A DNA stretch of 64,000 nt from a virus. Lineage: Duplodnaviria > Heunggongvirae > Uroviricota > Caudoviricetes. The translations under genes were made by a program, and so were the position numbers. Positions within the stretch are counted from its first letter, which is position 1. Each line of letters begins with the position of its first letter. Positions 12,438 through 13,070 of this stretch are shown here, piece after piece. The DNA lies in IMG/VR virus record IMGVR_UViG_3300012979_000001, positions 35,375-99,374 of that record; one strand, written 5' to 3'. The notes under the pieces were generated by a model that did no database searches, was not told the origin of the DNA, and was given only the letters and a program-made list of their open reading frames with translations.

Positions 12438-12491
12438 AAAAATATTTATAAAATACTTGACTTTTCAAAAACATTATGGTAAAATTTAACC

Positions 12492-12650
12492 TAGAATGTT
12501 ATTCATTTTTCTTCCAGCATAAACATATCATTAAATTGTTTATGTAGAAATCCTGAATAAAGTTCTCTGTCTATAAGAATCACGATAGATATGAAATTCA
12601 ATCAAAAATAAGAAGGTACTTATCGAGCCTTCTTATTTTTGTTTTTTTTA
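12492..12650 (+). ncRNA. candidate small RNA unit 1 (promoter to intrinsic terminator, no RBS-led ORF)
   Basis: promoter TTGACT-17-TAAAAT at 12457-12485; internal hairpin CATAAACA/TGTTTATG; terminator AAGAAGG..CCTTCTT plus T-run at 12610-12650. Confidence 0.4.
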
Positions 12651-12695
12651 AAAAAAATAGTTGACAATATGACAATAATATGGTAATCTATATTT

Positions 12696-12885
12696 GTAGT
12701 TAGTATGTCTTTATTAGAGTTTCTACACAAGTCACTTCATTCATTCGATTTGTGTAGAAATAATATAAAGATATTTAAATACAAGTACCAAAAGTATTTT
12801 CTCATTTTTGGGATAGTGAGAAAACAACCAAAAAACTCAAAATAGTCGTGTAAGGAGGAGTAGTGCCCTCCTTATATTTTTTTTA
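12696..12885 (+). ncRNA. candidate small RNA unit 2 carrying conserved loop AGTCACTTCATTCATTCGA
   Basis: promoter 12661-12689; 11-bp stem TTTCTACACAA/TTGTGTAGAAA enclosing conserved loop; terminator AAGGAGG..CCCTCCTT plus T8 at 12852-12885. Confidence 0.4.
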
Positions 12886-12928
12886 TAAAAAGTATTGACA
12901 AAAAGAAAATAATATAGTAATATATATG

Positions 12929-13070
12929 TATATCGTTCAATAGTCTACATTTAATTGTTCTATATTAGTCACTTCATTCATTCGACATATATAAAACAAT
13001 TAAATGGATAAAACTCGTTAGGTATAGGAAAAGGTAAGAAGATGTTTGCGTCATCTTCTTATATTTTTTT
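12929..13070 (+). ncRNA. candidate small RNA unit 3, same conserved loop in a different (covarying) 12-bp stem
   Basis: promoter 12894-12922; stem CATTTAATTGTT/AACAATTAAATG enclosing TAGTCACTTCATTCATTCGAC; terminator AAGAAGATG..CATCTTCTT plus T-run at 13036-13070. Confidence 0.4.

Follow-up and report, generated by a model that had tools for sequence, protein, structure and literature searches.

What does a phage keep between two of its genes in a long stretch that holds no recognizable gene of its own? This question arises at positions 12438-13129 of a 64,000-nt stretch of a tailed-phage genome (Caudoviricetes; positions 35,375 to 99,374 of the IMG/VR record IMGVR_UViG_3300012979_000001), hereafter called the window. 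The gap measures 692 nt, separates a gene for a 170-aa protein from a gene for a 225-aa protein, and ranks third-longest in the window among the stretches without an open reading frame (ORF) of at least 60 aa. It is entirely occupied by three consecutive units, U1, U2 and U3, all on the plus strand. Judging from sequence evidence, we regard it as a firm conclusion that the gap holds three self-contained paralogous genes, predicted to encode structured non-coding RNAs. How these RNAs might work is a matter of graded probability, which we address after the evidence.

An initial reading made from the letters alone (the sequence-only reading) had described three tandem promoter-to-terminator units without genes, each with a TTGACA promoter and an RNA of 130-190 nt. 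We located promoters and terminators in all three. The promoters are of the host type (sigma-70/sigmaA-like). The U1 promoter, TTGACT-17-TAAAAT with an extended -10 TG (12457-12485), and the U3 promoter, TTGACA-17-TAATAT (12895-12923), were both detected by a promoter scan at 10/12; the -35 element of U1 is therefore TTGACT. The U2 promoter, TTGACA-17-TAATCT with TGG before it (12662-12690), was missed by the scan because its -10 element is too weak, and 51 of its 53 positions are the same in a related locus, L010, described below. The intrinsic terminator of U1 has a 15-bp stem, a 9-nt loop and a U-run (12603-12648, stem 12603-12641). Those of U2 (12848-12885, stem 12848-12877) and U3 (13034-13070, stem 13034-13062) each have 11 pairs followed by a U-run, and in L010 the U2 terminator has changed on its loop side with the pairing kept. 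Overall, the 3.5-kb region contained five terminator-like sites against 0.6 expected; a stricter scan found 13 terminators on the plus strand of the 64 kb, three of them inside this gap. The predicted RNAs of U1, U2 and U3 are ~155, ~188 and ~140 nt long, with folding z-scores of -5.9, -7.0 and -5.4, and none of 200 shuffles was as stable. No ORF of at least 20 aa led by a Shine-Dalgarno (SD) sequence was found inside U1, U2 or U3, so that by sequence prediction each unit has the make-up of an independent transcription unit: its own promoter, its own terminator and no ORF led in this way.

The sequence-only reading had noted one ORF in U2 and had conceded that its proposal would fail if the loop motif proved to lie in a translated small protein. 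This ORF (12705-12845) has 46 codons rather than the 48 first counted, it does lack a ribosome-binding site (RBS), and L010 does not keep its ATG, so that the loop motif is not part of a recognizable small protein. In U3, the frame of the U2 ORF over the sequence that the two units share is closed by a TAG just upstream, and the lengths of the insertions and deletions that separate the window from L010 are not divisible by three.

A separate, large promoter class of the window is marked by a palindrome, perfect or nearly so, that spans the -35 element and the spacer (TTGACAAA-NN-TTTGTCA) and often has CCA(T/C)CT(G/A)AC before it. On the plus strand such promoters lie at 5694, 13833, 14490, 26223, 27486, 37051, 38124, 40504, 45829, 55513, 62720 and others. 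The palindrome is absent from the three small-RNA (sRNA) promoters of the window and present at unit A of L010. To judge from its sequence, it looks like the operator of a single regulator or the mark of a promoter class specific to the phage.

The central feature of the units is a hairpin with a shared loop. The 19-mer AGTCACTTCATTCATTCGA occurs exactly at 12730-12748 in U2 and at 12967-12985 in U3, and no further copy with up to three mismatches exists on either strand of the 64 kb (0.01 expected). It had been described as a 19-nt loop. In the folds and in the inverted-repeat table, however, its ends GUC and GA(U/C) pair together, leaving a real loop of 13 nt, ACUUCAUUCAUUC (12734-12746 and 12971-12983). 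In U2 the loop is carried by a long 5' hairpin (12700-12778) with an inner 15-bp stem (12719-12733/12747-12761), and in U3 by a long hairpin (12948-13006) whose 23-nt arms (12948-12970/12984-13006) are 87% complementary. The two stems had been called completely different because the inner stem of U2 had been compared with the outer stem of U3. Once aligned in register, the inner stems TTCTACACAAGTC of U2 and TTCTATATTAGTC of U3 are homologous, and the covariation is real: five of the 15 pairs are altered on both sides, including two changes from C-G to U-A. In this register 93% of the cells are paired, against 31-58% with the partner slid, and the observed values are attained in 13 of 500 shuffles. 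Between U2 and U3 the identity is 79% in the promoter, 74% in the hairpin and 100% in the loop, with 60-79% outside the 19-mer. U2 has a second hairpin, UUUUCUCA.../...UGAGAAAA (12797-12824), with a GGGA-containing loop, and this hairpin is kept in L010.

U1 belongs to the same group. Its long 5' hairpin (12493-12566) ends in an apical stem GCAUAAACA/UGUUUAUGU (12517-12525/12537-12545) and an 11-nt loop, UAUCAUUAAAU (12526-12536), which contains UCAUUAA, a form of the family core discussed below. The segment TTT(A/G)TGTAGAAAT, which U1 and U2 had been said to share, is present at 12539 and 12749. In both units it forms the 3' hairpin arm, and the common arm pairs as CAUAAA/UUUAUG in one and CACAAA/UUUGUG in the other; U1 is therefore also a paralogue of U2 and U3. 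The apical loops fall into a U1 type, UUUGUGAAUGAUAU, and a U2 type, GAAUGAAUGAAGU. U1-U3 thus have what defines sibling sRNAs, namely paralogous genes with a shared seed and divergence elsewhere. Downstream of the U1 hairpin, the block CUGUCUAUAAGAAUCACGA (12567-12585) is identical in L010, and the local pairing predicted for it is not kept there, which suggests that it is probably single-stranded. We consider it a second candidate interaction site on these sequence grounds.

Relatives of the locus were found with the 225-aa protein as query; they form a graded series of 88-53% identity, and their contigs (numbered with an L prefix) were fetched. Where the flanking proteins are identical the gap is so too, and L005-L009 and L020 show no variation. 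The other loci differ in what lies in the gap. There is no unit in L019 and L098, where a 99-aa ORF fills the gap (split by a stop in L098); one unit in L018, L100, L014, L091 and L093-95; two units in L010 (88%), L012 and L013; and three in the window. The locus is therefore a hyperplastic hotspot, with 0-3 cassettes in relatives that belong to this family or to other RNA families. Unit B of L010 is the orthologue of U2: its hairpin is identical at about 38 of 41 positions, its 5' leader has diverged and the start codon of the ORF is gone. The three changes in the hairpin are a closing-stem G-U to A-U and the first-but-one and last bases of the loop, with UUCAUUCAUU unchanged. Unit A of L010 is the orthologue of U1. 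The two differ little over the 3' half, CUGUCUAUAAGAAUCACGA included, and the 5' hairpin of unit A has another stem, UCUCACAUAAGC/GUUUAUGUGAGA, with the loop GAUAUCAUUCACAAA. U3 has no counterpart in L010, and the terminators of U2 and U3 have C(T/C)TCTTATATTTTTTT in common in their 3' halves.

More distant relatives present the loop on yet other stems. L014 (65%) carries AUAUCAUUCAC on an unrelated 13-bp stem, and its single unit holds two candidate loops on mutually exclusive hairpins. L091 (67%) carries GGCAUCAUUCAAAA on another unrelated stem. The loops of L010 unit A and L014 have 14 contiguous nucleotides in common, ATATCATTCACAAA, again on unrelated stems. We compared seven hairpins (U1, U2 and U3 of the window, units A and B of L010, L014 and L091). 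All seven display the core TCATT(C/A)A in the apical loop, at a variable distance from the stem; it is unpaired in every minimum-free-energy and centroid fold, as expected of a conserved seed, and TCATT-A is the sole invariant block of the alignment. The family was defined by a hairpin-descriptor scan; a MAFFT alignment leaves the non-homologous stems out of register. Over nine loci and both strands, the scan met TCATT(C/A)A 60 times. Six of these occurrences sit in stems of 9-15 bp (one of them 6 bp within an 8-bp outer stem), and all six are in these units, whereas background stems have 6-7 bp. The copy in U3 was missed because its loop is closed by three pairs only (GUC/GAC). The strongest evidence for selection is this constancy of the loop core on unrelated stems, which suggests that selection acts on the loop itself, kept unpaired by whatever stable stem carries it. 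The proposal of a structured small-RNA family is thus borne out by the folding scores, the loss of the ORF in L010, the non-triplet indels and the compensatory pairs, and above all by the loop core on unrelated stems in four more hairpins, which come from three other phage lineages (L010, L014 and L091).

The borders between cassettes are also repeated. The terminator-to-promoter junctions form a family of three 56-nt copies, 63-79% identical, at 12643, 12877 and 13063, and the third contains the promoter of the 225-aa gene (TTGACA-17-TACAAT with TG, 13081-13109). Recombination between such junctions would explain why U3 is present in the window and not in L010. The arrangement recalls PeSLs, composites of a stem-loop terminator and a strong sigma-70-like early promoter that drive the gain and loss of cassettes in hyperplastic regions of T4-like phages (PMC2839356, PMC4122927). 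All three junction copies in the window have this composite structure; the ORFan protein genes that PeSLs flank are replaced here by cargo without an ORF.

Other loci of the series carry different RNAs at this position. Unit 1 of L012 (2680-2750) and of L013 (1415-1480) is a ~60-nt three-way-junction RNA inside its own terminator stem. Its inner hairpins covary (CGACU/AGUCG versus CAGC/GCUG, and GUAC/GUAC versus UGUA/UACA), and the junctions GAAAG, UGA and CCUAG are kept. A third RNA family, with AAGAGA in hairpin loops, comprises unit 2 of L012 (2790-2945) and the unit of L093 (2236-2440), and is also found in L094 and L095; its conserved blocks read GUAUUAUGUA-UAAUACA-AAGAGAA and GUAUUAUGUA...AAGAGAA(G/A)GUAUU. 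Neither of these two RNA families has an Rfam match.

We searched for known relatives of the units in several databases. With Rfam release 15 at E <= 10, positions 11.5-14.5 kb gave only chance matches to snoRNA and plastid families, at ~20 bits against gathering scores of 44-57. In gathering mode, the window and four related loci returned tRNAs only, and L012 was likewise negative. The units had no blastn match among GenBank phages. In IMG/VR, neither the exact 19-mer nor the conserved 19-mer of U1 had a match; a degenerate 17-mer gave 56 matches, none of them in a hairpin context, which are thus chance or unrelated coding sequence. Protein-anchored searches of IMG/VR, JGI metagenomes and GTDB recovered only the identical phage or unit-less relatives at ~40%, the single genome match (41%) falling in a region of Eubacterium plexicaudatum that resembles a prophage. 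The RNA family is therefore new with respect to Rfam, GenBank phages and IMG/VR.

What could such RNAs do? The reading that we favour, tentatively and short of an even chance, is that they are early, trans-acting sibling sRNAs with the loop as a base-pairing seed. The RNAs would be made early by the host RNA polymerase and would act in trans, the exposed loop nucleating pairing with an RNA that bears its complement. The core contains two CAU triplets, so that its complement UGAAUGA centres on AUG. A fitting target would thus be a translation start or a stop-start junction, to be occluded on a host transcript or on a phage transcript outside the window. The three siblings may supply dosage and slightly different specificities. 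Pairing through the loop is favoured by the conservation of 13-14 nt within subfamilies, by the unpaired state of the loop in every fold, and by the presence in the core of the CAU triplets and of the U-turn signature YUNR (UUCA/UUAA). The 14-nt loop shared on unrelated stems is, moreover, longer than a typical protein-recognition motif.

Several observations weigh against this reading. A YUNR match carries low information. The motif that is invariant across the family spans just 7 nt, a length equally compatible with a protein site; two or three loop copies per genome and the two candidate loops of L014 are equally typical of protein-sponge RNAs; and the comparative set is small, seven hairpins with about five independent stems. 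The sequence-only reading had suggested searching for complements of the loop, and within the 64-kb window this search came up empty: duplex-energy and mismatch scans compared with shuffles found no complementary site above chance there or in the related loci. The best exact complements were two plus-strand 12-mers, AATGAATGAAGT at 38928-38939 for the U2/U3 loop (in the ORF 38650-39303) and ATTTAATGATAT at 58382-58393 for the U1 loop (in the ORF 57744-59153). Both are at chance level, with ~0.25 to 0.6 exact 12-mers expected by a composition-based estimate. No gene in the window begins with ATGAATGA or AUGAAUGA, and the core complement UGAAUGA was found at no gene start. The 20 phage tRNAs were rejected as targets, the best duplex (-14 kcal/mol, with tRNA-Tyr) lying within the shuffle range.

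The main rival, to which we give roughly one chance in four, is that the loop is a decoy or sponge: UCAUU(C/A)A, a tandem UCAU/YCAY-like sequence on a rigid stem, would be a binding or pseudo-substrate site titrating a host or phage RNA-binding protein such as a KH-type protein, an RNase or an RNA-targeting defence nuclease. The link from YCAY to KH domains is one that we presume to hold for this loop. Seven invariant nucleotides at a variable distance from the stem would fit a protein site, as would two to three copies per genome and the lack of an RNA target above chance in the window. The accessory locus turns over fast, like counter-defence genes, and the phage invests in RNA-level counter-defence, with 20 tRNAs and a Pnkp-Rnl1-type fusion. 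The conservation of 13-14 nt within subfamilies on unrelated stems nevertheless exceeds most protein motifs, the neighbouring proteins have no recognizable RNA-binding domain or fold, and no candidate binder was found. Rather improbable, in our judgement, is the absence of any trans function, with the units serving as recombination or regulatory cassettes with filler, or as hairpins acting in cis (put-like antitermination, processing, insulation). HK022 put is an antitermination RNA that acts in cis on the transcribing polymerase, directly after the promoter, and the hairpins here also stand directly 3' of a promoter. The repetition of the terminator/promoter junctions in three copies, the alike terminator halves of U2 and U3 and the 0-3 cassettes among relatives likewise fit this explanation, and PeSLs drive such shuffling (PMC2839356, PMC4122927). 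PeSLs, however, are ~50-bp motifs flanking ORFs, not structured RNAs of 140-190 nt. Filler, moreover, would lose the exact 19-mer, the compensatory stem changes and the loop core on unrelated stems across lineages; and since each unit ends in a strong terminator, with a new promoter after it, downstream expression needs no read-through.

The remaining explanations are far less probable. A DNA-level element, either a promoter-primed replication origin or a protein site with hairpin or cruciform potential, might be expected from three strong promoters in tandem and long inverted repeats, all within AT-rich non-coding DNA, and we consider it very unlikely. The GC skew switches sign at ~4.0-4.5 kb and is positive across 12-14 kb, and iteron-like repeats lie at 33290-33345, so that neither mark of an origin is found at the gap, and an origin there was rejected. 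In addition, the G-U pairs and the G-U to A-U stem change point to selection for RNA pairing, and a promoter and a terminator frame every hairpin exactly, on the same strand. Still smaller is the probability of an RNA anti-CRISPR (Racr), which would imitate a single CRISPR repeat and thereby trap Cas proteins. The thought is prompted by the U2 stem flanks UUUCUAC...GUGUAGA, which resemble what we take to be the repeat handle of Cas12a (type V-A), presumably with a loop of 4-5 nt; in U2 that loop would be replaced by a 27-nt extension. Only U2 and its orthologue in L010 have the handle-like flanks. The stems of the other members are unrelated and the loop is the conserved part, so that the resemblance was discarded as a hallmark of the family, and the window contains no CRISPR array or cas gene. 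The units share with Racrs that they are small promoter-led phage RNAs (PMC10651486). The least probable explanation, with next to no weight left, is a set of small-protein genes with unusual starts. It would account for the existence of the ORF at 12705-12845, but not for its missing RBS, its replaced ATG in L010, the closed frame in U3, the non-triplet indels or the lack of any SD-led ORF of at least 20 aa. Three further candidates were considered. A type III toxin-antitoxin antitoxin (ToxI-like) or pseudo-ToxI would require head-to-tail repeats of ~34-45 nt, which are not found; the copies are 237 nt apart in separate units. A type I toxin-antitoxin system is opposed by the fact that the sole ORF (46 aa) is hydrophilic and basic, without an RBS and not conserved. 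Mimicry of the tRNA-Met anticodon loop (UUCAUUC versus UUCAUAC in the phage tRNA at 30823) is only remotely conceivable, because the loops have 11-15 nt and a pyrimidine in place of the purine required at position 37.

The genes on either side mark the edges of the variable locus. On the left is the plus-strand gene of the 170-aa, Cys-rich protein (11925-12437), which has no Pfam or PHROG match. On the right is that of the 225-aa protein (13130-13807, plus strand), likewise without a Pfam or PHROG match. Its structural model is confident (pLDDT 82, pTM 0.85), and no PDB entry matched it in Foldseek at E < 1. The protein, always found 3' of the hotspot, may thus have a new fold, as far as the model goes, and the lack of a PDB match means that its fold offers no functional clue. 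The source phage is large, of the gut type and of the Firmicute type. Its window is low in GC (28.8%) and without a DNA match among GenBank phages by blastn. An ENA contig of 197,699 bp with the same genes (ERZ27246411:k141_1829593) starts near position 9260 of the window, which implies a genome of at least ~207 kb. The phage is also present in the samples SRR6059713 and JGI 3300023051. From 5 kb onward the plus strand holds nearly all genes of the window. The window encodes an ATP-dependent DNA ligase, RecJ, a RecD2-like helicase and a split PolIII-alpha (DnaE), whose closest match among cultured phages, at 49%, belongs to a [Clostridium] innocuum phage.

The window also encodes 20 tRNAs (27596-37668). 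Near them, a 753-aa fusion of a polynucleotide kinase (AAA_33), a metallophosphatase and a T4 Rnl1-type RNA ligase, of the Pnkp-Rnl1 type, lies at 41066-43327 on the plus strand. Together with the tRNAs it forms a toolkit for tRNA repair and replacement, which suggests that the hosts use tRNA-cleaving defences. Around the tRNA-Asn gene (37596-37668, without an encoded CCA), ~1 kb (37051-38030, plus strand) is GC-richer and apparently non-coding and follows a strong promoter. It gave no Rfam family at its gathering score, and may be a large structured RNA or an intron-like element.

Two other gene-less units occur on the plus strand of the window. One, at 4612-4905, lies where transcription diverges and the GC skew switches. 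From a promoter TTGACA-17-TATAAT at 4612 it would produce a G-rich structured RNA of ~260 nt (z -4.9) with the tracts GGUGGGGUGGGC and GGGGGUGUGGGGG, ending at a terminator near 4857-4905. This unit has no Rfam match; only a weak match to SpF36 was seen at 4509-4554 on the minus strand (E 0.034). The other, at 33097-33210, is a short ORF-less promoter-to-terminator unit with an RNA of ~77 nt, directly after the tRNA-Ser genes. An iteron-like array of about five copies of TACCTGT(G/A)A follows at 33290-33345 and 33362-33372, extending from immediately upstream of a promoter into it, and is a candidate regulator-binding or origin site.

The significance of the locus lies partly in its RNA family, which has an obvious functional surface, a loop of 7-14 nt that stays constant as the stems change. 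It also lies in the evidence that RNA genes are shuffled whole, as promoter-to-terminator cassettes, at one hotspot; the PeSL idea, framed for ORFans, would thereby be extended to cargo made of RNA. Related phages keep no fewer than three unrelated RNA families at this one position, as is seen in counter-defence islands. A bolder proposal, which we hold to be improbable, is that the UCAUU(C/A)A-loop RNAs are a tool of counter-defence or host takeover, exchangeable "RNA morons" of large gut Firmicute phages. The loop would either silence, at the start codon, a host transcript that is essential or serves defence, or disarm an RNA-targeting nuclease as a pseudo-substrate, and the island would hold different RNA weapons in each phage, the three-way-junction RNAs of L012/L013 and the AAGAGA RNAs of L012/L093 being others. 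Once found, the partner of the loop could reveal the means by which these uncultured phages disarm their hosts or bring them under control. To our knowledge, few of the phage sRNAs known have been characterized, and hardly any come from large lytic phages of Gram-positive gut bacteria.

How do these units compare with known systems? The antisense and kissing-loop regulators CopA, RNA I, P1 c4 and P4 CI use U-turn loops with YUNR, and their complement is encoded nearby or in cis. The RNAs described here likewise form a long imperfect hairpin with a YUNR-containing recognition loop, but the locus and the 64-kb window hold no complement above chance. CsrB and RsmZ titrate CsrA, and a phage pseudo-ToxI neutralizes ToxN. 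With these sponges the units have in common a short motif repeated in exposed loops or copies and a setting like that of counter-defence, but they lack the GGA motif and the 36-nt tandem repeat array. Like Racrs (PMC10651486), they are small promoter-led phage RNAs with a hairpin, but their conserved part is a 13-nt loop rather than a repeat-like stem-loop, and their stems vary freely. As with PeSLs, a repeated terminator and early promoter borders small accessory cassettes whose number varies among close relatives. PeSLs, however, belong to Gram-negative T4-like myoviruses and lie beside ORFan protein genes, whereas the cargo here is non-coding RNA in an unrelated phage. Tandem sibling sRNAs that act by base pairing are known from bacteria, for example Listeria LhrC1-4, Neisseria NgncR_162/163 and Vibrio Qrr (PMC5880928, PMC9973317). 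Those siblings differ from the present ones, which are phage-encoded, have a U/C/A-rich UCAUUCA sequence and show no sequence or Rfam relationship to them. Gram-positive sRNAs typically carry a C-rich anti-SD motif, unlike the UCAUUCA here. The likeness lies in the arrangement: adjacent paralogous genes, each with its own promoter and terminator, have a short exposed sequence in common and diverge in the rest. New as the RNA family is, its kind is thus a known one, that of phage sibling sRNAs in a hyperplastic cassette locus.

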